From: a virus
Reading direction: 5' to 3' (one strand)
Virus record (IMG/VR): IMGVR_UViG_3300046787_000206
Coordinates: 30,963-94,962 of that record
Length of the DNA stretch: 64,000 nucleotides
Part shown: piece after piece, positions 50,593-64,000 of the stretch
Position numbering within the stretch: the first letter of the stretch is position 1
Layout of the letters: each line of letters opens with the position of its first letter
Notes under the pieces: generated by a model
The model's input: the letters and a program-made list of their open reading frames with translations, nothing else
What the model was told of the DNA's origin: nothing
The model's database searches: none
Made by a program: the position numbers and the translations under genes

Positions 50593-51117
50593 TTAGTTTT
50601 TATACCCTGCTACTAGACGGCGTAGGCTACCAGAGAAAGAGTCTTTGGTTACTCCAGCCATGTCAGCTAACTCAGCCAAACTAAGGGTGGGGTTGTCTAA
50701 ACGTAGCTGTGCTGCTTTGAGAGTTGCTTCAGGCACATTACCATTAGCTAACTTAAGTGCGGCTTCAATCTTGCCCCTGGCCGCTTCACCAGACTTTGCA
50801 GCACGTAGGCTGTTAGACCTTGCTAACGCAATCTCCTTGTTACCTGTCTTAGGTAGTTCGTCCTCATGAATACGGCGCTTTGTACGCACACGACGAACGA
50901 CGCCCGTACGCTCTGATGTAGTGAGGCCTCCCCAAATACCCTCGTACTGATTGTCTATTGCTACCTGCAGGCAGTCAAACTTGATGCTGCAAGTAGCGCA
51001 TACCTTCTTGGCACGCTCTACTGTTCCGTAATAATCAGTAAACGGCTCAGGGAAAAACAACTCTGGGTCAGCGTTCTTACACGCAGCCTGAGTCATGTCT
51101 AACTCTTCTATGTTCAT
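50593..51117 (-). CDS. WhiB-family domain fused to WhiA-like C-terminal HTH
   Basis: N-terminal AAC..ADPELFFP, C..C.....C, GIWGG; C-terminal VPEATLKAAQLRLDNPTLSLAELA...TKDSFSGSLRRL matches the WhiA HTH pattern. Confidence 0.8.
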   Translation of the reverse strand: MNIEELDMTQAACKNADPELFFPEPFTDYYGTVERAKKVCATCSIKFDCLQVAIDNQYEGIWGGLTTSERTGVVRRVRTKRRIHEDELPKTGNKEIALARSNSLRAAKSGEAARGKIEAALKLANGNVPEATLKAAQLRLDNPTLSLAELADMAGVTKDSFSGSLRRLVAGYKN

Positions 51118-51338
51118 CGGCGCTTTGCCTTTCTTGATAGTTCAATGAATCCGTTATTTCTTAAATCTCGTTTTATGTTTTTCAAGGCACGGATGTCCGA
51201 AGGGGTTTGCGCAGAGAAAAAGAACCTTCCTAATGGAGATTGCCATTTAAAATGGCCTCCATTAGTTAGTTCTACCTGCCAACCTTGCTCTCTTGCTTGT
51301 CTTACTAGCAAGGATAGTTCTTTGTTACTTATCTTCAT
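51114..51338 (-). CDS. HicA-like (dsRBD-fold) toxin candidate
   Basis: GWQVELTNGGHFKWQSPLG...TPSDIRALKNIKRDL; ATG 51338 is the more plausible start. Confidence 0.6.
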   Translation of the reverse strand: MKISNKELSLLVRQAREQGWQVELTNGGHFKWQSPLGRFFFSAQTPSDIRALKNIKRDLRNNGFIELSRKAKRR

Positions 51339-51492
51339 AATGCTGTTCTTTCCATGCCTCATACATGTTGTCGCAGGCACATGGGTAGTAGTTGCATACG
51401 CTACACAACTCTTCGTGCTCCGTGCACTCCTGTTCACAATCCTCGCACTCGTCACAGGCCAGGTTGTTATCCATCCAGTCATTCCATCCCAT
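51325..51492 (-). CDS. 55-aa acidic protein with 8 Cys; not in ORF track
   Basis: MGWNDWMDNNLACDECEDCEQECTEHEELCSVCNYYPCACDNMYEAWKEQHYEDK. Confidence 0.6.
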   Translation of the reverse strand: MGWNDWMDNNLACDECEDCEQECTEHEELCSVCNYYPCACDNMYEAWKEQHYEDK

Positions 51493-51497
51493 GATTA

Positions 51498-51671
51498 CTA
51501 GATGCCCTTTACTGCTTCAATTGCTTCTGAAATGGTAAGCACGTTAGCCATAGAGTACTCGGTGTCAGTAGCGTCGTTAGACTTCATTGACTTGAACATG
51601 GCAACTACTTCTTCTTGCATTACTTTCTTACCCATACGGATACCCTGGGCTAGAGTTTCTGATTCAGTCAT
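51498..51671 (-). CDS. 57-aa hypothetical protein; not in ORF track
   Basis: AAGGA RBS; MTESETLAQGIRMGKK... Confidence 0.6.
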   Translation of the reverse strand: MTESETLAQGIRMGKKVMQEEVVAMFKSMKSNDATDTEYSMANVLTISEAIEAVKGI

Positions 51672-51846
51672 TTGTTTTTTCCTTTACTTGTCCATAGGTG
51701 AACACTTGTTTATGTAACTCGTTATATATTTTGGCTAGTTCCTTGCAGGCCTTCCATTCACCTGCGTGTGTGTATGCTGACTCTGCCTGCTTGAGTGCAG
51801 GGAACAGCAACTCTACCTGTTGCTTAGTTAGTTCTAGTTCAATCAC
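51664..51846 (-). CDS. Hypothetical protein
   Basis: AAGGAG RBS; overlap-coupled. Confidence 0.65.
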   Translation of the reverse strand: MIELELTKQQVELLFPALKQAESAYTHAGEWKACKELAKIYNELHKQVFTYGQVKEKTND

Positions 51847-52217
51847 AACTTATCTCCTTCTAGCCATACCTTGAATGATGCTTTATCAATCTCCCGAAGG
51901 TCATACGCCATCTTCTTAGCGGCATCCTGAAGGTGGCTTGCAGCTGCTTGCCAGCCTTTCTTGTAAGCCTTGGTTTCTTTGGCACCTGCTTCAGGATTTG
52001 CGGTCAACTCTGCAACTTGTGCTTCTAGTTGAGTAATGCGAGCATTCCGTTTAGCCAGGGTTGCTTGCAGTCCTTCAATGTGAATGTGCAGGTTTTCTAA
52101 CTTCATGTCTTGCTTACTAGGTGGTCCATCACGCCATTCATCGAAACTAATGCCGCATAGACCACAACGGTTGGCTTCTTTGTCTTCTTGTGTTACATAC
52201 ATGTGGTCGCAGTTCAT
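51843..52217 (-). CDS. Zn-finger plus coiled-coil protein
   Basis: CDH...CGLC then heptad repeats. Confidence 0.7.
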   Translation of the reverse strand: MNCDHMYVTQEDKEANRCGLCGISFDEWRDGPPSKQDMKLENLHIHIEGLQATLAKRNARITQLEAQVAELTANPEAGAKETKAYKKGWQAAASHLQDAAKKMAYDLREIDKASFKVWLEGDKL

Positions 52218-52390
52218 TTGTTCTTCTCTTCTCTTATATATCGTTCAATAACTTCTTGGGTAGCCGCATAGCGGTAGTCATCTTTATCCCAACGGTTTAC
52301 ATACTCACCATCAGGTGTAATGCCAATACTCCAACCGTCGTACACTCCACGGACTTCTATGAGGTATACATAGTCTTCTATTAGGCTCAT

Positions 52391-52621
52391 TTACTTCTCT
52401 CCTTTGATAAGAGCGATAAGCCCTTGAGTGTAGCCCCCATCGCTCAGCCCATATTTGCTGATGATGTCCTGTAGCAGTTTAATAATTCGCTGTTCTGCTA
52501 AAGACTCTCCATAACAGACAGGGCATACATCTTCATCTACATTAGTGAAGTCCCAGCCATGCTCATCACACACATACCAAGTAGAGTGCTTACCTACTAC
52601 CTCACGCATACGTTCAGCCAC
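52391..52621 (-). CDS. Small zinc-binding protein
   Basis: CDEH...CPVC; AGGAG RBS. Confidence 0.7.
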   Translation of the reverse strand: MAERMREVVGKHSTWYVCDEHGWDFTNVDEDVCPVCYGESLAEQRIIKLLQDIISKYGLSDGGYTQGLIALIKGEK

Positions 52622-52775
52622 GTTTATCTCCTATCATCCATAAGATAATACTTACACTAACTAGTACTACTGACAATGGCCAGGCATTACCGTCTATAGC
52701 CATTCCCCACACACCTACGAAGCCTACGCCTACGGCTAAGCCACGCCACACGGCTTGTTTGTGTTGGCTCATCAT
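52614..52775 (-). CDS. 53-aa two-helix membrane protein; not in ORF track
   Basis: GAGG RBS; MMSQHKQAVWRGLAVGVGFVGVWGMAIDGNAWPLSVVLVSVSIILWMIGDKRG. Confidence 0.6.
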   Translation of the reverse strand: MMSQHKQAVWRGLAVGVGFVGVWGMAIDGNAWPLSVVLVSVSIILWMIGDKRG

Positions 52776-52947
52776 GCCTCGTTCACATAGTAGTTACCAG
52801 TCAAGCCCTCGGACTCTGTGTCGTATTCGATATAGGCAAGTTCTCCCATTACAACCTTGTGTGCGGTGTCATAAGCGTCGTCTACGTTGTCTGCTTCTAC
52901 TTCTACTCTATGAGATATCAACTCATAGATGATTACTTCGTACTCCA

Positions 52948-53163
52948 TCACTCTGTTTCTACTTCATACTCTCCGTATACCTTGTGGTATGGGAAGTCAT
53001 CTTCTTGTTCTTCAATCCACACACGACTGATTTCTCCGCCATCCATGTCTTTAGTCCAGTCGTCAATCCATGCTTGTGCATCCGCTTCGTTATCGAATAT
53101 GGGTGCGTAACGTACATCTCCAGGACCATCACAATCTATGGCCCAAATTACAAACTTACTCAT
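52948..53163 (-). CDS. Small acidic protein
   Basis: AAGGAG RBS; TAATG coupling. Confidence 0.7.
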   Translation of the reverse strand: MSKFVIWAIDCDGPGDVRYAPIFDNEADAQAWIDDWTKDMDGGEISRVWIEEQEDDFPYHKVYGEYEVETE

Positions 53164-53429
53164 TAGTTGTTCTCCTTTACTAGTTCGTATACCATCTCTT
53201 CAAAGTTAGTGGCTTCACCGTTGTTGTCAAAGAAGTAGCACCCATCTTCCAGTGCCTTATACATCCACCCTGCGTCTACGTCGCAAGGAAACTCTTCGAA
53301 GATAGGCTCTAGCGCTTCTTCTTCTATGCGAGTCAAGTACTTGCGGTTCTTCATTACCTTGTTAGACCAGAACTCTGCGCTAATACGTGCAGTGCTTTCT
53401 TCTACATCAAAGGTTATGTACTTATCCAT
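53163..53429 (-). CDS. Small acidic protein
   Basis: GGAGG RBS. Confidence 0.7.
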   Translation of the reverse strand: MDKYITFDVEESTARISAEFWSNKVMKNRKYLTRIEEEALEPIFEEFPCDVDAGWMYKALEDGCYFFDNNGEATNFEEMVYELVKENN

Positions 53430-53595
53430 TACTCATCCTCCATTACATCGAAGTCCCACTTGTTATCTACAATGTGGGGTTCAAAGTCATCAGCAATCCA
53501 TTCGCTAATGAACTCTAGCGCCCCCTGTTCATCTTCTGCTTCTACTTCAATCTCATAAGTAGTTGTTCTATATGCTTCTATTAGGTACTTAGCCA

Positions 53596-53829
53596 TTAGT
53601 TGTGCTCCTCTAGGTATGTATAGATTTCTTTAAGTAGTTCTGATGTGGTTAGGTCAAGTGCATTGGCCATACACTCTAGTAGTTCGCTTGATGCTCCCTT
53701 CTTACCTGTCTCTACTTCGGACCAATGTCCAATAGAGATGTACCTACGCCCTGCGGCTTCTCGCAAGGTAAGCCCTTGTTCTGTGCGAATTTTGCGCACT
53801 GTTGCTCCTATAGCGGTTTGTAGTTTCAT
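53596..53829 (-). CDS. XRE-family HTH regulator resembling actinobacterial ClgR
   Basis: AIGATVRKIRTEQGLTLRE...SIGHWSEVETGKKGASSELL. Confidence 0.8.
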   Translation of the reverse strand: MKLQTAIGATVRKIRTEQGLTLREAAGRRYISIGHWSEVETGKKGASSELLECMANALDLTTSELLKEIYTYLEEHN

Positions 53830-53831
53830 AA

Positions 53832-54098
53832 TTAGTCCTTGTCTACTAGGTGCTGACCTTCTAGTTGAGTACTAGACAACTTACAGATTTGACACTTACC
53901 TGTAAAGATGCGGTGTACGTTCAGGTTAAAGTGCTGGGCTAAGTCCATGCGCTCGCTGGATAGGCACTCATCAATCAACTTGAACATGCTATCTGTCCAG
54001 TGAGTTGTAGGGATAATGATGTGCGAAGTGCCTGCTTCTAGCGTTAGGTTATCTCGCTTACCCCAGTTACCGTTAGATTGAAAATAATACTGCGACAT
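53832..54098 (-). CDS. Hypothetical protein
   Basis: AAGGAG RBS. Confidence 0.7.
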   Translation of the reverse strand: MSQYYFQSNGNWGKRDNLTLEAGTSHIIIPTTHWTDSMFKLIDECLSSERMDLAQHFNLNVHRIFTGKCQICKLSSTQLEGQHLVDKD

Positions 54099-54177
54099 TA
54101 CTGCTCCTTTACAATGTGAATGAACTTGAAGTTATCTTCAGTTACTAGTGGTGTGCCACCTAAGGTGGCTTGTTTTA

Positions 54178-54531
54178 TTAGTTCAACTGCTGTTCGTTCA
54201 TCAGTTGCTGTGATTTTAAGTTCGCTGTATGAACTAACTCCGTCAACATGGAAGACGTAGACTGCCATGACTCCTCCTCTACCTTTGTATTTTTAGGTGG
54301 TACTTGTTTAGTAGCGACAGGTTTTGCTTTAGGTTTTGTCGCTGATTTTTTCTTCAACGCTGGCTTAGTTAATACCTTGTTGTGCTTAGCGTTGTACTCC
54401 TTAGTGAATAGAGTCATGTCTACGTGGCATAGACAATGGCAAGTGATTGGTTTGCCATACTCAAACTCTTTTGTACAGTTAGTGTGTTGCTCTATGTCCA
54501 TGTCTGGTAAACACCAGCCGAATAAAGCCAT
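54178..54531 (-). CDS. Cys/His N-terminal domain plus Lys-rich linker protein
   Basis: GGAGG RBS; GWC...H..C...CHCLCH. Confidence 0.7.
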   Translation of the reverse strand: MALFGWCLPDMDIEQHTNCTKEFEYGKPITCHCLCHVDMTLFTKEYNAKHNKVLTKPALKKKSATKPKAKPVATKQVPPKNTKVEEESWQSTSSMLTELVHTANLKSQQLMNEQQLN

Positions 54532-54561
54532 GATTGCCTCCTATAGGTTTGTTTGTGTTGG

Positions 54562-56499
54562 CTAGGCAGTCGCAAGGTTGCGAGCGATACCTACCTTGAC
54601 TAGTCGCTTGGCTAGACCGAACAACTGACTAGCCTCATTGACTAGCACTGCTACCTCGCAACCGTGAGTGTCAATAGTAATCTCGCTACGACTACGCTTG
54701 TAGTTCGGACCGTAATCAGCGTAACGCTCGTTCCACCAGTCGGTGTCATCTACATAGGCTAGTGCTGTAAGCACACCGCCCTTACGCAACTGACGCACGA
54801 TGTTGTCACACTCGTCACGCTGTGACCATGCTCCATCAGTAATGGAGATGATTAACTTAACGGCTCGCCTAGACTCGGCAAGAACATACTTGGCATACTT
54901 GAGAGCCTTGAGTGGCTCGGTGCCACGACCCATGTCAGTAACACGCTTCTGGTATGTAGCACGTTCATTGGCTGAGTAAAGAACACGTGCCGCATCGTCA
55001 AAGGCAATGACTGTAGTAGAGGCGTTGATTTTATCCATAGCCCGCTTGATAGCCCACATGTTGTCGTAAGCCTTGTTGATAGTCCATGACATAGAAGGAG
55101 ATGTGTCTAATAGAATGACACACTCAATGTCTACTGCGTCTTCACGACCTAGTTCCCAACGGTCAAACGCTTCGTCTACGTCACAACCAACACCGTAGCG
55201 TAGGACATTGAGTTTGCCACTGTCTTGACGCTTGTCCCACGCTGGGTCGTACTCACCCTTAAGCAACTCTAGTTCGCCACCGAATGACTTGGAGGCGGTG
55301 ACTGCTTCGAATGGCACGTCACTGTTGTATGACTCAGCCTTAGTAGGAGTAGCGACAGCATTGCTACTAAGTTCTGCTTCGCCATTGAACTGACGTATGG
55401 TGTTGTCAATGTCGTCAGACAACCTGTCCATAGCGTTGTAGAGCGTGTCTTCTAGAAGTTCATCTAGAATCTCACGGTCTTGACGGTTGTCGTCACCACG
55501 ACCTGCTTGCTTGCTACTGGCATCACTGTCAGGGGTAGGAGTGCGGTCTGACTGACCCTCTGATTGCTCGCTGTCAGACTGCTCTGACTGCTGACGTTTC
55601 ATACGGTCAATGATGTCTTGCTGTTCGCCCTTAGACATAGGCTTGCTAGTAGAGGAGGACTTGAGTTCGCCCTCTTTGCGCTGGTCGTGACCACTAGGGT
55701 CTTGGATACGTTGCCAACCAGTTGCTCGGTCATAAGCGTCAGTAGGGTTTGCTGGCTGTAGTTGCTTGACTAGTTCGTCATAACGCTGGATAAGTGGCTG
55801 TGCTAGGTTACACTGCGCTGGGTCAGCAAGGTTGAGCATTACGTACTGGTCTACGATAGATGTCATCTCCGACACACTGGCTGGGTCTTCGTATACCTGA
55901 GCGACAGCGTTACGCAACTCTATAGGCAGGTACTTACGACCTACGATGATAGGGAACGCTACTGAATACTGCTTAGGGTTGTTGAGCAAGTGCTGAGCAA
56001 TAAGAGCGACCATCCACTCGGTAATGCTTGGATACTTAGTGGTCATCATGGTCTCGATACGCATGTCTTCTAGCGCATTGAACGAACGCCATAGGTCATT
56101 CTGACGAACCCAAGTGCCTAGGTTAGAGCCAACACGAGGAGTCATAAGAATGTGGCAAATCTCGTGGAGAGATAGACCCTTGATAGCAGTAATAACCTTA
56201 GGGTCATTCAACTTACCTAACTTGCCAGTAGCAAACCAGATGTTGTCTGCGTCAGACCAAGCAGGTGCTGGAGCATTGAAGTCAGCGTCTAGGTGAACCT
56301 TGATGTGACGGAGAGTAAGGGTGCTAGCAAACTTACTGACTACCTGTGCCATACGGAGCATACGCTCGTGGTCACGATTGAGTGTGCCTGTATTAGACAA
56401 GGTAATAGTAGTTCCTACAGGAACTTCTATAGGCTCTGGCTCTGCGAATAAATCATCACCCTCGATGTCTAGTTCTAGAGGGTCTGTAAAAGCGGTCAC
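54562..56499 (-). CDS. vWA-domain protein with N-terminal HExxH metallopeptidase-like domain (CobT-like)
   Basis: HEICH and NALED; acidic linker; MIDAS DTSPS and ITDG; GTG 56499 has an AAAGG RBS. Confidence 0.85.
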   Translation of the reverse strand: MTAFTDPLELDIEGDDLFAEPEPIEVPVGTTITLSNTGTLNRDHERMLRMAQVVSKFASTLTLRHIKVHLDADFNAPAPAWSDADNIWFATGKLGKLNDPKVITAIKGLSLHEICHILMTPRVGSNLGTWVRQNDLWRSFNALEDMRIETMMTTKYPSITEWMVALIAQHLLNNPKQYSVAFPIIVGRKYLPIELRNAVAQVYEDPASVSEMTSIVDQYVMLNLADPAQCNLAQPLIQRYDELVKQLQPANPTDAYDRATGWQRIQDPSGHDQRKEGELKSSSTSKPMSKGEQQDIIDRMKRQQSEQSDSEQSEGQSDRTPTPDSDASSKQAGRGDDNRQDREILDELLEDTLYNAMDRLSDDIDNTIRQFNGEAELSSNAVATPTKAESYNSDVPFEAVTASKSFGGELELLKGEYDPAWDKRQDSGKLNVLRYGVGCDVDEAFDRWELGREDAVDIECVILLDTSPSMSWTINKAYDNMWAIKRAMDKINASTTVIAFDDAARVLYSANERATYQKRVTDMGRGTEPLKALKYAKYVLAESRRAVKLIISITDGAWSQRDECDNIVRQLRKGGVLTALAYVDDTDWWNERYADYGPNYKRSRSEITIDTHGCEVAVLVNEASQLFGLAKRLVKVGIARNLATA

Positions 56500-56540
56500 G
56501 ATGTGCCTTTCTATAGGTGCGGAATGTTTGTGTTGGAGCC

Positions 56541-56572
56541 ACACCCTAGGTAACTACTGCTACCTAGGGTGT
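56541..56572. promoter_or_regulatory. Intergenic hairpin between AAA+ and vWA genes
   Basis: ACACCCTAGGTA / TACCTAGGGTGT perfect 12-bp stem, loop ACTACTGC. Confidence 0.65.
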
Positions 56573-56581
56573 GTATAGCAA

Positions 56582-58009
56582 CTACTTGACTGAGTATGCG
56601 CCAGTAGAGACGTTGAGTTCCTGAGCAATCTTGTCGAACTCAGCGTCAAAGCGCATCTTGAGAGCCTCACGCTCACCGTCAGACTTAGGGAACGCATTGA
56701 GTAGTGCGGTCACTGCGAACTCAAAGTTAAGGTTGGTAGCCTGAGCAATGAAGTTCTTAAGCAAGCGGGTAGACATAGGTACTGAGAACTGGTCGCTCAT
56801 CTCGCTAGCCTGACGGATACTGTTAGCGAACAACAGCAAGGTAGGTGACTTGATGAACTTGGATTCAATCTTGTCGTCATACTTGAACTCCAACTTGACG
56901 TTGAAGCGGTCTAGTAGGGCGTTGTCCTGACGAACTGTGCCTGTATAACCTAGACCTGTGTTCTGGTCAGCAATAAAGATACATTCTGGGTGAACCTTGA
57001 TGACCTCGTTGAGTGGCTCGATAAGCAACTCACGCTCTTGTAGCAGACGTAGGAACAACGAAGCAGACTTGGCGTTCATACGGGTCAACTCGTTGATAAG
57101 GATTACTGACGGCTGTTGAATGGCTGTTGCCAACTGTGAGTAAGTCCAGCGCATACTGTTACCTACACCAGTTGGAACGTAACGACCCTGAGTAATACTC
57201 TGGTCAATCTGCTGTGTACATTCGATAGTGACGAACGGCAGGTTGTGCTTAGCGGCATAGTTTCTAGCACTACTGGTCTTACCTGTGCCAGCGTCACCAG
57301 TGAGTAGCACGTTCAACTGTGACTTGTGAGCCCAAGCGTATACCTGTGACTCCGTAACGCCGTTCCACTCACGCTCATAGTATTCTTCTACATCAGGTGT
57401 GTGTAGCACCGCTTGTGTAGTAACTTCTGTGGCTGGTGGAGAGATTAGTGTAGTCATCTCCATAACATTCTCCTTTACTGGTTCTGTAGTAGTGATGGAC
57501 AAGCCCATCAACTTGTCACGCAACTCTTCTAGCGTCTCCATAACAGGTTCGTCTACTGGCTCTACTACGGTCTCTACTACAGGCTGTGGTGTTACCTGAA
57601 TAGACGGGCTAACTACTACTGGTGACATAGCCTTGGTGTATTTCATAAGGCTTGCTGGGCTAGTTACTGCGTCACTCAAGATGTCGGTGTATACCTGCCC
57701 TAGAGTGTTAGGTGCTAGGACATACGCTTCATCTTTTACCTGACGCACTAGTTTCTGCATCAAGGTAGTAGGTGTTAGAGGGAACTGTAGGTCTCGGTAG
57801 TCACTAGGCGTAATGGAGATAGCCTTAGGGACACCTACAATGAACTCGTCTAGTGCTACTGCGTCAGGTGCGGTCTCTGACCAAGCCCCTGAGACACCAC
57901 GACCACCACCTACACGATTGAACACTCGGACTGACTTATCCATAAGTGGAACTACTGCGGTCTGTCGAACTCCATAAGGAGACTGCGACTGGATTATAAC
58001 TGCGAACAT
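56582..58009 (-). CDS. MoxR/CobS/CbbQ-type AAA+ ATPase
   Basis: GDAGTGKT Walker A, ILINE Walker B variant, ALLDRF arginine finger; likely start ATG 58009. Confidence 0.85.
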   Translation of the reverse strand: MFAVIIQSQSPYGVRQTAVVPLMDKSVRVFNRVGGGRGVSGAWSETAPDAVALDEFIVGVPKAISITPSDYRDLQFPLTPTTLMQKLVRQVKDEAYVLAPNTLGQVYTDILSDAVTSPASLMKYTKAMSPVVVSPSIQVTPQPVVETVVEPVDEPVMETLEELRDKLMGLSITTTEPVKENVMEMTTLISPPATEVTTQAVLHTPDVEEYYEREWNGVTESQVYAWAHKSQLNVLLTGDAGTGKTSSARNYAAKHNLPFVTIECTQQIDQSITQGRYVPTGVGNSMRWTYSQLATAIQQPSVILINELTRMNAKSASLFLRLLQERELLIEPLNEVIKVHPECIFIADQNTGLGYTGTVRQDNALLDRFNVKLEFKYDDKIESKFIKSPTLLLFANSIRQASEMSDQFSVPMSTRLLKNFIAQATNLNFEFAVTALLNAFPKSDGEREALKMRFDAEFDKIAQELNVSTGAYSVK

Positions 58010-58025
58010 ACTATTACTCTCTTTC

Positions 58026-58217
58026 TTATAGGGTGTTGCTGGTTTTGTTTGTGTTGGCACGCTCTGCGAGGAACTCTCGTAGAACTTCAGCGTAGATAGC
58101 GGCAACTTCTACATCTTCTAGATTCACTAGGTCACCGTCAGTCTCCTGTGGTCTGCTATCTACAGGTGGTAGGTAGGGCTCCATTAGACTCTTGATGAGT
58201 TCAATTGGGTCTGTCAT
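58026..58217 (-). CDS. Hypothetical protein
   Basis: AAGGAG RBS; ATGA overlap. Confidence 0.65.
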   Translation of the reverse strand: MTDPIELIKSLMEPYLPPVDSRPQETDGDLVNLEDVEVAAIYAEVLREFLAERANTNKTSNTL

Positions 58218-59020
58218 ACTGTCTCTCCTTCTAGTTGTGTTACTACATACTCAGGCTCATACTGCTTAGTGAGTAGTTCTACTCCAGCAATGGGGTCATA
58301 GCCTGAGAGGTCATTGGTTACTGCTTGCTGTGCGTCTTCTGCGCTACGAGCCTTAACAGTAAAGGTGGATACTAGTTTGACTTCGTATACTGTGTCGAAT
58401 GTCTTGCCAGGGCAATCGTCATACCAGTCATCAACATCATCAGTTTGCGAGCAATAGCAAGAGTCCACACGGTCAAGGTCTACATAGTCTTGGTGACTGC
58501 CTGGAATGTCCCACTCTTTAGTAGGGGTATAGACTCCGTTGTTATTCTTAGCCTCTGCGCCCCAGCCCTGCTCTTCTTCATAGGAGAAGTCAATGTCTAG
58601 AGTAGGGAACTGCTCACAGATAGCGTGGAACACTTCAATAGGAGCGCCCCAAGGACTGTCGAAGGTAACGCTTACAGACGCTCGGTTCTGGTCATCTCTA
58701 TAGATGTCTAGGTCAGCACTACCAGCATCCCACTTGACTCCCCAGTTAGAGCAGTTCCAGTTATACCAGTTGAACTCTGTATCACCTGTTCTGGTGAAGC
58801 CGCCTTTACCATCAGCCTTACTACCATTGGTCTCGTGATACTCGTCTCGGTGCTCTCTATCTAGAGTGATGAATGAGTGGTATGAGAACGACTTACCTGA
58901 CTCCCAGTCATCATCATTTAGAAACTCAGGCTTACTAGAGATGAGAGTAATAAATCGCTCCATCTCCTCTAGGTCGTTAGGTCCTGCTACCTGAACGCTG
59001 TTGTATACCCAGTTTGGCAT
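58214..59020 (-). CDS. DUF1281/YubB-like ferredoxin-fold protein
   Basis: MPNWVYN, WYNWNCSNWGVKWD, FDSPWGAP motifs. Confidence 0.8.
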   Translation of the reverse strand: MPNWVYNSVQVAGPNDLEEMERFITLISSKPEFLNDDDWESGKSFSYHSFITLDREHRDEYHETNGSKADGKGGFTRTGDTEFNWYNWNCSNWGVKWDAGSADLDIYRDDQNRASVSVTFDSPWGAPIEVFHAICEQFPTLDIDFSYEEEQGWGAEAKNNNGVYTPTKEWDIPGSHQDYVDLDRVDSCYCSQTDDVDDWYDDCPGKTFDTVYEVKLVSTFTVKARSAEDAQQAVTNDLSGYDPIAGVELLTKQYEPEYVVTQLEGETV

Positions 59021-59142
59021 TACTTGCTCCTTCTAACTAATACTGCCTGCCATACAGACAGTTGAATGACTACTAGGCTAATGAGCCTGATGAGCCAAGT
59101 GTTTAGTGTGTGGTTATAGCGGTGTTTGTGTTGGTTGCTCAT
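59020..59142 (-). CDS. 40-aa hydrophobic peptide; not in ORF track
   Basis: GGAGGAG RBS; MSNQHKHRYNHTLNTWLIRLISLVVIQLSVWQAVLVRRSK; TAATG overlap. Confidence 0.55.
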   Translation of the reverse strand: MSNQHKHRYNHTLNTWLIRLISLVVIQLSVWQAVLVRRSK

Positions 59143-59205
59143 AGCGTTGCTCCTCCATCTAGTTCTTACGAACTAATGCGCTCTCACTCATAGAGAGCAC
59201 ACTAG

Positions 59206-59250
59206 AAAATAAGAACGCCCCTGCTACACGTCTGTATAGCAGGGGCTTCT
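59206..59250 (-). terminator. Intrinsic terminator
   Basis: GCCCCTGCTA / TAGCAGGGGC stem with U-rich tail on minus strand. Confidence 0.7.
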
Positions 59251-59257
59251 CTCTTAC

Positions 59258-59740
59258 TTATAGTGATGCGGTAATACGGTTGAACTCACTCACAGTGAAC
59301 TTAGTGCCTACTTCGATACAAGATAGCCACTCAATAGAGTTCTTTAGGTCGTGAATAACCTGGTCTACTGACTGCGTGCGCCCCTGACGGTCATACATAC
59401 GAGGGAACTCTACATACTTACGCTCTGGGTAAGTGTATAGGGTGTCCCAGTCAGGCTCGTTGTTCAAGACATCACTAGGTAGACGGAACTCTACTGTAGT
59501 GTCTCCACGATAGTTCTTACCCAGAGATAGGCTCTCTAGGTTGGCAGGCTTACGAAGATACTGCTTGATAGACCCTACTGCCCACTTGTGATACTCCTTC
59601 TTACGAGTCTCACGAATAGAGTCAGTCTCCTTACGGTAGTCCTCGTCATACTGCTTCTGCTCTGCCTGTAGTTTCTCTAGTAGAGCGATTTTTGCCTTAG
59701 CCTTGGCTATAACTGCTGGAAGGTTCATTTCGATTGCCAT
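59258..59740 (-). CDS. Hypothetical protein
   Basis: AAGGAG RBS. Confidence 0.75.
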   Translation of the reverse strand: MAIEMNLPAVIAKAKAKIALLEKLQAEQKQYDEDYRKETDSIRETRKKEYHKWAVGSIKQYLRKPANLESLSLGKNYRGDTTVEFRLPSDVLNNEPDWDTLYTYPERKYVEFPRMYDRQGRTQSVDQVIHDLKNSIEWLSCIEVGTKFTVSEFNRITASL

Positions 59741-59768
59741 TGTGTATCTCCTTAGTTGTTGTTTGGTG

Positions 59769-60059
59769 TTACTTGGTTACTTTTAGCCCACGGCGGGCAA
59801 TGCCAGTGTGAATACTTGTGGTCACACTGAACTTCTTGTCTGTTACCCAGATGTTTCTAGAGGTAACTACATCATTGTTCTCGTCATAGTCCTGTGTATA
59901 GGTGACTGTGGCGATAGGTTCGGCGTATGACATAACTACATACTGCCTAACGCTGTCTATAACGGTGTTATAGCCTCTTAGAGAGCCTGTAGAGAGGATA
60001 AAGTCTTGCTCATTAGCCACACGCTCTACAGCGTCTTTACGGTTTACTTTGATGCTCAT
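59769..60059 (-). CDS. Hypothetical protein
   Basis: AAGGAG RBS; SYAEPIA...FSVTTSIH motif. Confidence 0.75.
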   Translation of the reverse strand: MSIKVNRKDAVERVANEQDFILSTGSLRGYNTVIDSVRQYVVMSYAEPIATVTYTQDYDENNDVVTSRNIWVTDKKFSVTTSIHTGIARRGLKVTK

Positions 60060-60092
60060 TGTTTTGCTCCTTATAGGTTTGTTTGTGTTGGG

Positions 60093-60443
60093 CTAGCCGT
60101 AGATTACTTCACCGAAGCACGCTACTTGAATGATTACGTCATAGACTTCGCTATCCATACGGTGTGCGTCTTCGTAGTTCATAAGGTCTAGGGCGATAGC
60201 GTCTACTATGTCTGACCTAATGGCTACTTCTCTATCTAATAGAGACTGGATAGCCTTAGTAATGTCTGAGTAGTGAACTACATAGACCTTTCCATCTTCT
60301 CCATCAGTGATGGTATATGTCTGTGCGTCTTCGTCTACTACGGCTTTAGTTGCCCAGTAGTGGATACCATAGCCAGCCCCCTCAATGATGTCTTCAATCA
60401 TCTCGTGGGTTACTTCTACGTTCATACGGACTACATAAGTCAT
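60093..60443 (-). CDS. Acidic hypothetical protein
   Basis: GIHYWA...DVIIQVACFGEVIYG motif. Confidence 0.75.
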   Translation of the reverse strand: MTYVVRMNVEVTHEMIEDIIEGAGYGIHYWATKAVVDEDAQTYTITDGEDGKVYVVHYSDITKAIQSLLDREVAIRSDIVDAIALDLMNYEDAHRMDSEVYDVIIQVACFGEVIYG

Positions 60444-60542
60444 TAGTTACTCTTTCCTGTTACTTCTAGGCAGACGACACAGATTTGGTATAGGTCGCCA
60501 AGTTCTAGGTCGTCTACTGGGTCAATGAATGTGTGAATGTGC

Positions 60543-60755
60543 TTAGGCATACATAACCTTCATCTCGTAGTCATAGGCATAACGCTCTGCGTCACTCCAA
60601 GCCATCTCTCCATAGAACAACTTGGTCTTCTTATCACTGGTTACTACCTTGAAATAGTCATCATCAAAGACTGCTGTGCCTACATAGATGCTGTAGTCAT
60701 TCGTCTCGTCTTGTAGTTCCCACTCTTTTACTAGGGCTACGCTCGGCTTGCTCAT
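60543..60755 (-). CDS. Hypothetical protein
   Basis: AAGGAG RBS. Confidence 0.7.
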   Translation of the reverse strand: MSKPSVALVKEWELQDETNDYSIYVGTAVFDDDYFKVVTSDKKTKLFYGEMAWSDAERYAYDYEMKVMYA

Positions 60756-60882
60756 TACTTGCTCTCCTTCTTGAATAGGGCTACGGCTTCACGCTTGGTG
60801 TAGCCATAGTATTGCTTAGTTACTAAGTAGCCGTTCACTACGTCACTAATGACATAGGCACCGCTATAGTTCTTCTCTATGC

Positions 60883-61068
60883 TCACTTGTTCATCTCCTT
60901 TACATAGGCTAGACGGCGTAGTGCCTGCTCTAGTTCATACCTGACTCCTGTTACAGCCTCGTCTAACTGTGCCGTAGGGTGCCCAGCCATAGTTCTTAGG
61001 CTTAGATACTGGGATAACTTACGCTGTAACCCTGCTATCTGTGCTTTGACTTCATCTTCTTTATACAT
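60883..61068 (-). CDS. Hypothetical helical protein
   Basis: AAGGAGG RBS. Confidence 0.7.
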   Translation of the reverse strand: MYKEDEVKAQIAGLQRKLSQYLSLRTMAGHPTAQLDEAVTGVRYELEQALRRLAYVKEMNK

Positions 61069-61309
61069 AACAGCCTCCTTAGGCTATACATAAAACGCCC
61101 CTGCCGAGTGGCAGAGGCTATGGGGGGGTCTAAGGGGGGGCTACGCCCTCCCCTTTAGAAGAAAAGACCTGTGATGGTCTTTAGAAGAGAGAGAAGAATA
61201 ACTATAGAGAAGAAACACATAGATAGATACATACTCTCTCCCTTGGCTTGTGTGACTTATAGGTGCCGTTTGTTTGTGTCGGTCACCTATAGCCCAAGAA
61301 CTTCTAGGT

Positions 61310-61520
61310 CCTCCTTTAGGACTTGCTCTTGGTCTTTGTGTGGGTGTCTTCTAGAGGAGAGTTAGCCCACTCTTCAAACTTCTTACTGGCTTCCTCATAG
61401 CATTCAGGACAAGAAGGAACATACCTGTGAATGTCCTTTACCTCTATAGAGCAGGCTTGGTTACACTCGATACATACGTATTGAAACATCTTGACCTCCT
61501 TTAGGTCTTGCTCTTGGTCT
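61310..61520. repeat. 26-bp direct repeat flanking the zinc-ribbon gene
   Basis: CCTCCTTTAGG(A/T)CTTGCTCTTGGTCT at 61310-61335 and 61495-61520. Confidence 0.85.
61316..61489 (-). CDS. 57-aa zinc-ribbon protein; not in ORF track
   Basis: AAGGAGG RBS; MFQYVCIECNQ...SCPECYEE. Confidence 0.7.
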   Translation of the reverse strand: MFQYVCIECNQACSIEVKDIHRYVPSCPECYEEASKKFEEWANSPLEDTHTKTKSKS

Positions 61521-61532
61521 CTCCAAGAAGCA

Positions 61533-61565
61533 GAAAACCCTACCAGCAGGGGATACTGATAGGGC
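61533..61565 (-). terminator. Probable intrinsic terminator
   Basis: Minus strand CCCTATCAG...CTGGTAGGG-TTTTCT. Confidence 0.55.
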
Positions 61566-61658
61566 TTCCTATTACTTGGTATTAGTGAAGGGGGGGTCTG
61601 TTTGACCTGGTCTTACCAGCCATTGACCCCCCCTATCACTTTGGCAGTAGCCTAACTA

Positions 61659-62096
61659 CTAGCCAAGTAGGGCACGAAGGTCTTTAGTTGCTAGTGAGAA
61701 CTTCTCACCGTTAGCAACTTTGCCCTTCTGAATCTTGCGGAGAACATCCCACGCTTCGCCCTGCTCTGCCAATAGGGCAGGGGTCTCTTCGATAGCCCAA
61801 ACAGTGCCAGTCTTCTCGTTGACGCCAGCCTTAGCCTTAGTGGCTAGGGTGTTAAGGGCTACCATAGCAACCTTGCTAAGGGTCATTAGAGAGCCGTCGG
61901 CAAACTCGAAGTGGGTCTGCTTAGAGTAGGCAATGGCTTCGGCGTTCTGAGCCTTAGCAAAAGACGCCTTGGCTTCGGCTCGCTCGGCTATAACTTGGAA
62001 CGAGATGTTACGGGTCTGCTCATCCTGAGACTTGCTTAGAGTCTTGACGGTAGCGTCATCTAGAGATGAGACGATTTCAATGGTCAATAGAGACAT
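61659..62096 (-). CDS. Ala/Lys-rich hypothetical protein, first gene of the minus-strand operon
   Basis: 145-aa ORF with TAGGT RBS-like sequence. Confidence 0.75.
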   Translation of the reverse strand: MSLLTIEIVSSLDDATVKTLSKSQDEQTRNISFQVIAERAEAKASFAKAQNAEAIAYSKQTHFEFADGSLMTLSKVAMVALNTLATKAKAGVNEKTGTVWAIEETPALLAEQGEAWDVLRKIQKGKVANGEKFSLATKDLRALLG

Positions 62097-62119
62097 TATG
62101 TAACCTAACTGTTAGTGAA

Positions 62120-62600
62120 CGAATGGGGTTATGGAGTCATAGCCCCTAACCCGCCACCCTAGGGGGATAGGGTGACGAGATAGCGGTTATGGTTACTAGG
62201 GGGGCAGGGATAGCACGGGTTAGGTGATAGCAAGTTAGGCGAACCTAAGCCCTGCCCCCTAGCAACGGTATAGACACGGCGTTAGCCGTGAATAGGTCAC
62301 TAAGTCATAGGGTTGCCTAGCACAGTCATTAGCGGAATGGTCACGCTAGAGGTCATCAGGGCATAGGTTGCCCGAACGCCTATCGGCTAGGGGGGTCAAG
62401 CCAGTGGACAACAACTAACTACTGCCTAGTTGCTCTCAATCACTCGGTGTTGATTAGTTGAACACTAACAGACCCCTAATCTGATAAGTGACTACCCCTG
62501 CCATAGGGCATCAACCGCAATGGTGACGGGGAAGTGGCCAGGTGAGAAACACGGTTGGGGCCTATCAAGTCAAGGCAGTAGCCTAAACAGGGGTAGTCAA
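62120..62600. ncRNA. Candidate large structured non-coding RNA (strand unresolved)
   Basis: No ORF in the track; at least eight consecutive or nested stems and a loop complementary to a distal 8-mer. Confidence 0.5.
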
Positions 62601-62633
62601 GATGGCTAAGAGGGCTGTGATAGCATAAGTGAC

Positions 62634-62828
62634 ATGAATGAACTATTTACTGCCGCCACTGGCTATAAAGCAGACCCGCTCCACTTCGCTATGCTCGACT
62701 TGTACGTACGAGCGGGTGCCGAGGGAGACATCCTCGAACAGATTGCTGACATGAGCACGTTCTACCCTGAGCCAGACTTGGCCGAGGTGGGCTTTGTTGT
62801 CGTCTGGGACGCCATGCTGAAGGGCTAA
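62634..62828 (+). CDS. Hypothetical protein, probably leaderless
   Basis: TAGCAT-N7-ATG upstream. Confidence 0.55.
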   Translation: MNELFTAATGYKADPLHFAMLDLYVRAGAEGDILEQIADMSTFYPEPDLAEVGFVVVWDAMLKG

Positions 62829-62990
62829 GTGTCGCTTTTCCCCAAGGAACAAACACCCGTTTTCGTGCGTACGGACGAATTGCTTACACTACAGGGCCCC
62901 CTGTATACAATTCGTACGCCTTTTCGTGAGTACTGACTAATTTTTCAAAGTTAGCCCTAAAACGCCCCAGCTCCCTGCCATACTATCTTC

Positions 62991-63239
62991 ATGAGTAAAT
63001 TTACTAAGAGCCTCAAGACCAGTGTCACCAACGGAGCTTTGGGTACAGCTGCAGTCACCACGGCCATGACCCCAGACCACGGGAACCCTTTGGTCAATCT
63101 TGCCGTAGGTGCAGTCGCTGGAGGTGTCGTCGCAGGGGTTCACAAGTTCATCAACTACGACTCATCGAAGCCTGCGACCAAGTCAATGTTCCAGGAAGAG
63201 CCAAAAGGCAACCGAAATCTAGGCAAGCAGTTCAAGTAA
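62991..63239 (+). CDS. Small Gly/Ala-rich, possibly membrane-associated protein
   Basis: Hydrophobic GxxxG-like segments; followed by terminator. Confidence 0.6.
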   Translation: MSKFTKSLKTSVTNGALGTAAVTTAMTPDHGNPLVNLAVGAVAGGVVAGVHKFINYDSSKPATKSMFQEEPKGNRNLGKQFK

Positions 63240-63260
63240 GCCAAATCAGCTGTTTTTAAC

Positions 63261-63300
63261 GAAAAATGCCCTCACAGGATGACTGTAGAGGGCATTTCTC
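63261..63300. terminator. Bidirectional terminator between convergent genes
   Basis: AAATGCCCTC-ACAG / CTGT-A-GAGGGCATTT. Confidence 0.7.
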
Positions 63301-63395
63301 TTATATGGGTGAGTGATTGGTCATTCGAGGGGTCAAATGGTCACCACGAGGCGCATGTGGCGGCTCAGGCCACTCATCTCAAGGCAGGGGCGTTC

Positions 63396-63884
63396 TTAGG
63401 GTAAAAATTCTTCCAAATGCTTCTTTTCGAGCAAAACTGCCACCGCAGCGTTGATTCCGAGCTTAAATTCGTCAGAAAATTCGTCTCCGACTTCAACAAG
63501 CTGCTCTTGGAGGATTTCAAGGTCGTACATACTTCCACCAGCAGCATTCTTTTTGCAGAGAGAAGCAAACCTCTGTAGAGCATCACCTTCAAAGGTGACC
63601 GTAGTCTTCATGTTTTGGCCTTGAGCACCAGCCGTGATTTCAATCTCCGTGGCTGTTAGGCGCAACATAGCGTTAAGCGCATCCATAGGGATGAGCGCAT
63701 CAGGCTTTAAACCCATCGGAATATTGTTAGTAAGCCAGTTTGACCAGGTGTTGGGGTCTACTACGCTCTTGTTGCTCTGGTTTAGGTGTACATGAGCGCC
63801 TGAAGAAGGCTGCTTTGAGCCAGGGTGGACATCTTGGCCCTTGTGAGCCGATTTGAAGGGTGGGAACTCCATGCGTTTTCTCAT
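63396..63884 (-). CDS. Hypothetical protein, leaderless
   Basis: 162-aa ORF starting 6 nt after a -10 hexamer. Confidence 0.7.
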   Translation of the reverse strand: MRKRMEFPPFKSAHKGQDVHPGSKQPSSGAHVHLNQSNKSVVDPNTWSNWLTNNIPMGLKPDALIPMDALNAMLRLTATEIEITAGAQGQNMKTTVTFEGDALQRFASLCKKNAAGGSMYDLEILQEQLVEVGDEFSDEFKLGINAAVAVLLEKKHLEEFLP

Positions 63885-63920
63885 AAAGCTAGGTTACAGG
63901 GGCGTTTTACGGGTTGTCAA
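63885..63920 (-). promoter_or_regulatory. Sigma-A-type promoter for a leaderless mRNA
   Basis: Minus strand TTGACA-N18-TAACCT-N6-ATG. Confidence 0.75.
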
Positions 63921-64000
63921 GGGGCGATTAAGGGTAAAATTGGCCTCGTCGGGAAAAAATGCCTCGTCGTCGGATAGGAACTCATGGCACAGAATAACTT

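Follow-up and report, generated by a model that had tools for sequence, protein, structure and literature searches.

The window analysed here is the final 64 kb (64,000 nt) of a 94,962-bp IMG/VR virus record that is 99% complete according to CheckV; positions are those of the window unless stated otherwise, and loci in other sequences carry L numbers. The genes at 50593-62096 all run leftward, and the stretch that the initial annotation had flagged as a candidate structured non-coding RNA (62120-62600) falls in the gap between gene 1 of this leftward set (61659-62096) and a rightward 64-aa ORF at 62634. The locus contains the following features.

50593-51117, minus strand: gene for a fusion of a WhiB domain (E 2e-17) with a WhiA C-terminal helix-turn-helix (HTH) domain (E 3e-8) in a single chain, by Pfam
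61538-61551, minus strand: hairpin resembling a terminator, with TTTTCTGCTT after it, a short distance downstream of E2
61564-61659, minus strand: element E2, consisting of GGCTACTG, a long hairpin in two parts that contains the invariant CCAG, and a 3' box similar to TTATCAGGTA (here ATACCAAGTA)
61659-62096, minus strand: gene 1, the first early gene, 145 aa, of no known family, occupying a variable slot
62097-62537, minus strand: variable, hairpin-rich untranslated spacer from E1 to gene 1, the bulk of the flagged stretch
62138-62161/62168-62191: inverted repeat I1, from a repeat scan
62159-62394: four copies of CTAGGGGG (62159+, 62196+, 62255-, 62387+)
62412-62432, plus strand: hairpin with the loop CTACTGCC, an inverted extra copy of the E1 core and the proposed pseudoknot partner
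62489-62500/62588-62599: inverted repeat I25, a perfect 12-bp stem, TGACTACCCCTG/CAGGGGTAGTCA, enclosing E1 in this phage only
62538-62587, minus strand: element E1, 46 nt plus a TTTA lead-in, GGCTACTG-N18-CAACCGTGTTTCTCACCTGG, the sole part of the flagged stretch conserved in relatives
62634-62828, plus strand: divergent 64-aa ORF; the extended -10-like sequence TGATAGCAT stops 8 nt short of its ATG

To judge from its marker genes (WhiB), the phage is an uncultured actinophage. The WhiB/HTH fusion gene stands at the end of the leftward operon, and WhiB genes were found in all five of the relatives searched, matching only the WhiB part of the fusion. Comparisons with cultured phages (blastn and tblastn) identified no close relatives, and among these phages an AAA+ ATPase encoded 4 kb downstream of the gap is shared only with distant Gordonia and Brevibacterium phages of ~90 kb. 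The large terminase, portal and major capsid genes follow a tRNA island and are found between 12.5 and 18.7 kb of the record. Positions 1-583 of the record repeat positions 94365-94962 (window 63403-64000), with identities of 98% and 92% on the two sides of a divergent middle, and this overlap falls within a minus-strand gene of 162 aa. As the head of the record repeats its tail, the contig end represents an assembly break inside a variable gene and not a physical terminus; the genome thus appears to close on itself, with the break probably reflecting strain variation in the 162-aa gene.

As to the flagged stretch itself, much of what had been described there is present. With the exception of a single 30-aa frame starting with TTG, the interval 62097-62633 has no ORF of 30 aa or longer, as had been claimed, and the stems listed in the initial annotation exist in the sequence and are recovered by a repeat scan and by the minimum free energy (MFE) folds of both strands. 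No match to known RNA families, group I and II introns, RNase P, tmRNA, 6C and riboswitches included, was found by searching positions 58000-64000 on both strands against Rfam 15 at E<=1, nor did Rfam match the E1-E2 unit of five related loci, and ARAGORN detected no tRNA or tmRNA in the window. The shuffle test that had been proposed gave z-scores of -4.40 (plus strand) and -5.09 (minus strand) for the 537-nt gap, with none of 100 dinucleotide shuffles folding as well. The assertion of unusual foldability is thus borne out against shuffled sequence, but only in part against the phage's own genome, where the excess is moderate (the top 2-4% of windows): by GC-adjusted MFE the target ranks 13th (plus) and 15th (minus) among 394 overlapping 480-nt windows. 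In terms of short perfect hairpins (arm of at least 5, loop of at most 10) the stretch belongs to the genome's top 2%, and in terms of longer or G-U-tolerant stems it is ordinary. The two strands of the trimmed gap fold equally well in the window (-164.0 versus -165.6 kcal/mol). Counts of G-U versus A-C mismatches, considered as a test of strand, were uninformative, as different pairs are chosen in the MFE structure of each strand. The GC content of the region is 0.52. Runs of six G or six C are concentrated in the vicinity, with 10 of their 15 start positions in the genome located between 61000 and 62633 (61122, 61134, 61590, 61627, 62199, 62390).

The pattern of conservation is of a different kind. 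Four relatives, identified without bias through the ATPase (49-58% amino-acid identity), share with the 1.5 kb around the gap only ~50 nt, and this is E1, whose conservation ends sharply on both sides. Pattern searches added 12 more distinct sequences, and E1 was found in 10 viral and 16 metagenome stretches, each locus having a single copy, its consensus in the minus sense being GGCTACTG-N17/18-CAACCGTGTnTnTCACCTGG; the invariance of this consensus is built into the pattern-defined matches, but every invariant base was already present in the four relatives found without bias. None of the small neighbouring genes on either side of E1 is conserved. In six close genomes the spacers are 290-625 nt long, the sequences of the relatives being unalignable with that of the window, and in relatives more broadly the length of the gap ranges from ~160 nt, with no gene, to 625 nt or more. 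As the gaps do not align, covariation is not computable for them, and no structure maintained by compensatory changes emerged from the consensus fold of the 16 sequences, which contains 8 invariant pairs, zero covariation and no trace of the 12-bp stem enclosing E1. The 8-nt complementarity noted earlier between the loop CTACTGCC (62419-62426) and GGCAGTAG (62574-62581) is real, and a counterpart of the pseudoknot partner was found in the gap of none of the relatives checked. The long stem of this phage likewise had no match in an exact-pattern scan of viral contigs.

Several known kinds of site were considered for E1. A reading of E1 as a -10 box (TAGGCT or TAGCCT) fails, the critical A or T varying between relatives, and inspection by eye for boxA, parS or an ECF-type promoter gave nothing convincing, the best register of block B of E1 matching 6 of 11 positions of the mycobacterial boxA consensus. 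Pairing of block B with downstream sequence or with E2 was also rejected, since the partners vary with no compensation. In bacteria block B has 27 matches, 25 of them in coding DNA, with flanks that read (I/V)NRVYHLDRG(Y/F)E, a sequence that we take to be murA; rather than homology, these matches represent codon coincidence permitted by the N positions. A literature search for the motif returned unrelated primers only. E1 was absent from all of the 185,579 species genomes scanned, and no tyrosine or serine recombinase (PF00589, PF00239), thus no integrase or resolvase, was found in this 99%-complete genome. Both observations fit what would be a lytic lifestyle, and the idea of a prophage attP site was dropped on these grounds.

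A second GGCTACTG, in the same orientation as in E1, is found right after the stop codon of gene 1, both in the window and in relatives, and marks the start of E2, an element of ~80-95 nt with a long outer stem and with the invariant CCAG in its inner stem. Examples in relatives are L002:7368-7463, L003:5046-5140, L005:6034-6128 and L013:3188-3282, and the E2 of the window scores 79.8 bits with the covariance model R1. The outer stem of E2 is observed to covary, with GGGGGGGTC/GACCCCCCC in the window replaced by GGGGGGCTA/TAGCCCCCC in L002, by CGGGCAGGCT/AGCCTGCCCG in L003 and by ATGGCTG/CAGCCAT in L011. In a model-based alignment nine pairs are altered on both sides, and 72% of cells are paired; shuffling lowers this to 62%, none of 500 shuffles reaching the observed level, and sliding the partners lowers it to 36-48%. 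Scanning with the E2 pattern (GGCTACTG ... ACCAG ... TTATCAGGTA) matched 96 viral stretches, and about 55 among the 80 loci listed (IMG/VR, L062-L137) clearly represent the same element, mostly with a length of 78-79 nt. The covariance model returned 35 significant matches, seeds included. As the long hairpin is kept in only some of these, the widely shared features of E2 are its sequence blocks. E2 is absent from Rfam and appears, by these scans, to be widespread in uncultured phages of 35-104 kb. Its usual place is between the first early ORF and a terminator-like hairpin, and hairpins with T runs can be read after E2 in L002, L003 and L005 as well.

In at least 20 phages, an E1-like sequence is followed by E2 at a distance of only ~200-225 nt and without an intervening gene, and in the clade of the window the distance is 0.8-2 kb and the interval consists of a spacer plus one ORF. 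From the adjacency of E1 and E2 in so many other phages it follows that the spacer and the gene make up a variable cassette located between them here. The compact unit of ~300 nt is composed of conserved blocks (among them CGCTTAAnnGTGGGGG), direct 7-mer repeats (TGGTGAC or TGATAGC, two copies), several copies of TCAGGTG/CACCTGA, repeated TTATCAGGT boxes and a hairpin, either CACCTGA-N7-TCAGGTG or a variant that covaries (L011:1038-1348, L012:5542-5849, L062, L064, L074, L075, L089, L090, L094, L097, L101, L102, L109, L111, L112, L128, L132, L133 and L135). Its consensus RNA structure is almost nil (-9 kcal/mol over 329 columns). A CCUGG/UCAGG pairing in these units was considered and set aside as uninformative, being invariant. 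The variable slot of the cassette holds 19 unrelated groups of proteins among 48 distinct sequences. Gene 1 of this phage has three close homologues (90, 77 and 67% identical), all on short contigs, and a pattern scan found no viral relatives of it. No recognisable DNA-binding or initiator domain is present in gene 1 or its counterparts, and a structure search with gene 1 was dropped, the AlphaFold2 model being too poor (mean pLDDT 54).

Although the sequences of the gaps are unrelated, their propensity to fold is shared among close relatives. All five of these have gaps with early-sense z-scores between -3.6 and -8.6 (rechecked at -6.95 for L013), with stems of 14-34 bp and with perfect hairpins 4-7 times as frequent as in their own surrounding loci. 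Gaps of relatives are more foldable than 13 coding controls (one-sided Mann-Whitney p=0.006), and in more distant members of the family the z-scores of the gaps are near 0. The early-sense strand is the more negative one in 18 of 21 gaps (binomial p=0.0015), compared to 8 of 13 coding controls. These values need to be read against the coding DNA of the same phages, segments of which, L004:9801-10200 among them, reach z-scores of -4 to -7 (-4.61 for a segment of the ATPase gene of a relative), so that shuffle z-scores overstate the region and should not be used alone to call structured RNAs in these phages. The strand asymmetry is likewise weak evidence, given these coding values and the bias matching that of the gaps in six of seven ATPase controls. 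That unrelated sequences are all strongly structured is an argument for selection on foldability rather than for neutral passenger DNA.

Taken together, these data suggest that the flagged stretch is most likely not a discrete conserved RNA gene. As everything other than the 46 nt of E1 differs between relatives, a fast-evolving structured leader is the most likely reading, rather than a new conserved RNA machine. Specifically, and tentatively, at a confidence that falls somewhat short of an even chance, we propose that the spacer is the 5' leader of an immediate-early transcription unit, by analogy with the Pleft RNA of phages L5 and D29. The minus-strand unit would be ordered as E1, the hairpin-rich spacer of ~440 nt, gene 1, E2 and the terminator-like hairpin. 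We infer that the spacer is transcribed together with gene 1, in the minus sense; E1 would serve as a promoter-proximal control element, and the stem-loops of the spacer would act as RNA, either stabilising or processing the immediate-early transcript or giving rise to abundant small early RNAs. Of the roles considered in the initial annotation, which had spoken of an antiterminator leader of the early operon, a ribozyme or a scaffold, the early-operon leader stays as the best reading, with a precedent in the L5/D29 Pleft RNA (PMC5712189); a new RNA class, ribozyme or scaffold with a pseudoknot finds no support, since conservation is limited to 46 of ~480 nt, the pseudoknot and the stems outside E1 are private to this phage, and the gaps do not align.

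The precedent is well characterised. In L5, D29 and StarStuff an abundant and stable non-coding RNA of ~500 nt is made from the region between Pleft and gene 89 (Dedrick et al., 2017; PMC5712189). This is the most abundant phage RNA, it is processed to species of 100-500 nt, it is toxic to the host and it is specified by a fast-diverging region, the promoter, transcription start, abundance, processing and toxicity having all been measured in L5 (PMC5712189). The locus described here resembles it in several ways: the early operon of an actinophage again begins with ~0.3-0.6 kb of ORF-free DNA ahead of its first early gene, the layout recurs in relatives, and the region diverges fast among them. 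When we folded the L5 Pleft region, z-scores of -3.66 for the transcribed strand and -1.96 for the other strand were obtained, which are of the same order as ours (-5.09 and -4.40) and favour the transcribed or early strand in both cases. The differences are also clear. Sequence homology is absent, with chance matches of 10-11 nt only, so the relationship is one of analogy. L5 stops most of its transcripts before the first gene, whereas the terminator-like site in our phage follows gene 1 and E2. The bracketing elements E1 and E2 have no described counterpart in L5, and a canonical promoter was not found here. The spacer may therefore be regarded as a non-homologous analogue of the known Pleft-type leader pattern.

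The promoter is the weakest link of the leader reading. Inspection of E1, the sequence upstream of it, E2 and both strands of the gap gave no canonical sigma-70/SigA pair of -35 and -10 boxes. A TAGGTT hexamer 5 nt ahead of the ATG of gene 1 could make this gene leaderless, leaving the spacer untranscribed. On the divergent side, the 64-aa ORF at 62634 is a candidate leaderless gene, with TGATAGCAT as its putative promoter. In other phages, judging from a reading of their sequences, GGCTACTGCC is found directly upstream of a good sigma-70-like promoter, with TTGAGT or TTTACA as the -35 box, an A-rich spacer of 16 nt and TATTTT or TATTAG as the -10 box, followed by AGGGGAGG and a gene start (L062:5537, L089, L094, L097, L101, L102, L109, L112, L128, L132, L133). 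As it sits immediately upstream of this promoter, GGCTACTGCC may be a regulator site adjacent to the -35 box and not the promoter itself. The WhiB-HTH fusion was considered as the protein binding GGCTACTGCC, and this is unsupported, as the WhiB domain alone is common to the relatives.

Two further observations concern the divergent side. An 8-codon mini-ORF, MAKRAVIA, with an AGGGG site similar to a Shine-Dalgarno sequence, follows E1 at 62602-62628 (plus strand); in L011 the divergent gene (171 aa) has a similar start, MAKKR, and the mini-ORF may be the remnant of a divergent gene that was replaced. At 62855-62942, the sole consensus-like promoter of the area (CTTACA-17-TACAAT, plus strand, 62883-62911), upstream of an ORF at 62991, is surrounded by a pair of direct repeats of 27 nt (ACCCGTTTTCGTGCGTACGGACGAATT, ACGCCTTTTCGTGAGTACTGACTAATT) and by an inverted repeat of 17 nt, and this arrangement looks like a classical operator-controlled promoter.

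One alternative, unlikely in our estimation but to be taken seriously, is that the spacer functions at the level of DNA, as an array of operators or iterons for a phage-specific or cassette-specific protein, with the hairpins as by-products of sites present in inverted copies; such an array could serve the divergent early promoters as their operator region, or it could be a replication origin with a coupling to early transcription. The repeats inside the spacers speak for this. Of the six copies of CTAGGGGG in the genome, four are inside the gap, three of these extend to CTAGGGGG(G)nAGGG, and the second and third make up the stem of ~17 bp described earlier, so that the longest stem is an inverted pair of the motif. 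The gap of each phage has a private over-represented 8-9-mer of this kind, in both orientations: TGTATAACA is present eight times in L005, CACTAGGC and CTAGGCAA three times each in L003, AACAACTGG three times in L004, AGGGTTAT three times in L013 and CACGCGCC three times in L002. Genome-specific 8-9-mers fit protein-binding sites in DNA as well as they fit RNA modules, and the compact unit, built of conserved sequence blocks with almost no consensus RNA structure, and the equal folding of the two strands in the window are also in keeping with a DNA array. However, neither a DNA-binding nor an initiator domain is recognisable in the proteins of the slot, the region is not rich in AT, the early-sense strand is the better folded one in most gaps (18/21), and stems of 14-34 bp exceed typical operators.

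Another alternative, which we consider rather improbable, is that the locus is a hyperplastic junction at which E1 and E2 serve as anchors and unrelated DNA is swapped by recombination of co-infecting phages, the spacer being a passenger that came in with gene 1 and has little function of its own. The sequences of L003 and L013 agree almost completely as far as E1 and once more at E2, with an unalignable gap between, and the upstream neighbours of E1 vary: L003 has an HNH endonuclease there, L004 a Dam methylase, and other loci have unrelated ORFs. This upstream flank appears to be a hot spot for the insertion of mobile or accessory genes. Both the HNH endonuclease gene (L003:3683-4189, plus strand) and the Dam-type methylase gene (L004:4194-4625, plus strand) terminate at a TAG within TTTAGGCTACTG, and L013 has an ORF sized like the HNH gene of L003 in near-identical upstream sequence. 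Several metagenome contigs stop ~15 to 170 nt from E1 and sister contigs run through it, which is the behaviour of an assembly graph at a conserved node between variable DNA. The 19 unrelated groups in the slot of gene 1 and the modest excess of foldability of the window over its genome are further points in favour of a passenger. Against it, the gaps of close relatives are consistently and strongly structured though their sequences are unrelated, and a spacer of 290-625 nt is retained in all six close genomes.

The single trans-acting RNA of ~480 nt, of a new class and with a CTACTGCC/GGCAGTAG pseudoknot, as originally envisaged, was already disfavoured by these data and is very unlikely: the absence of an ORF, the folding energies better than those of shuffles on both strands and the lack of a match among known families agree with it, but only 46 nt are conserved, the length varies from ~160 to 625 nt or more, this phage alone has the pseudoknot partner and the stem around E1, and 16 sequences yield no consensus structure downstream of E1. 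The other original suggestion, that single-stranded DNA is structured here because a physical end of the genome lies at the locus or is marked by it (cos or pac), is barely credible. In its favour, the locus has the position of the right end of L5-like actinophages, where the leftward early arm meets the beginning of the rightward one, and E1 is single-copy, highly conserved and sharply bounded, with some contigs breaking beside it. Against it, the head of the record repeats its tail, the contig end being an assembly break ~0.8 kb from E1; E1 is located mid-contig in four closed relatives; ~14 kb separate the locus from the large terminase gene; and where contigs break near E1, sister contigs continue through it.

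The variable slot and the varying neighbours of E1 indicate that the flagged 480 nt are the untranslated part of a cassette docked between conserved anchors. A wider proposal can be built on this, doubtful as it is at present, that E1 and E2 are the halves of an undescribed non-coding control unit of ~300 nt in a large group of uncultured actinophages of 35-104 kb, acting as a recombinase-free docking platform for the exchange of immediate-early genes together with their structured leaders; the docked genes would then be candidates for host takeover or anti-defence functions. Parallels exist in other systems. One example is the PeSL (promoter-early stem-loop) cassettes, which Arbiol and colleagues reportedly described in 2010 from hyperplastic regions of T4-type phages, and in which short conserved non-coding motifs, including a stem-loop, flank unrelated small early ORFs with mosaic boundaries. 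Conserved motifs flanking unrelated ORFs are likewise present at E1/E2, but a recognisable sigma-70 early promoter, which was looked for, is not, and E1/E2 sequences occur in two or three copies per genome at one locus, in phages of a different host clade. Another example is the antitermination RNA sites nutL and nutR (boxA-boxB) of lambda and put of HK022. As in these systems, two related cis elements in the same orientation are found after the start of the early unit and after its first gene, and E2 contains a conserved hairpin, as nut does; unlike nut, E2 (~80-95 nt) is far larger than boxB, and no gene similar to N or Q was identified. A third example is the attI/attC sites of integrons, with which the locus shares a variable gene between a fixed upstream site and a downstream imperfect palindrome with conserved ends and a covarying middle, but the phage genome encodes no tyrosine or serine recombinase, and only one cassette is present, with a long leader.

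In conclusion, E1, E2 and the variable slot that they bracket are more interesting products of this analysis than the spacer. The two elements are sharply conserved, absent from Rfam and present in dozens of uncultured phage genomes, where they bracket at least 19 unrelated small early proteins, and they offer a concrete way to locate accessory immediate-early genes in phages from metagenomes and to study the remodelling of early regions. If the spacer is transcribed, then this freshwater lineage would join the actinophages that start infection with a long structured non-coding early RNA.
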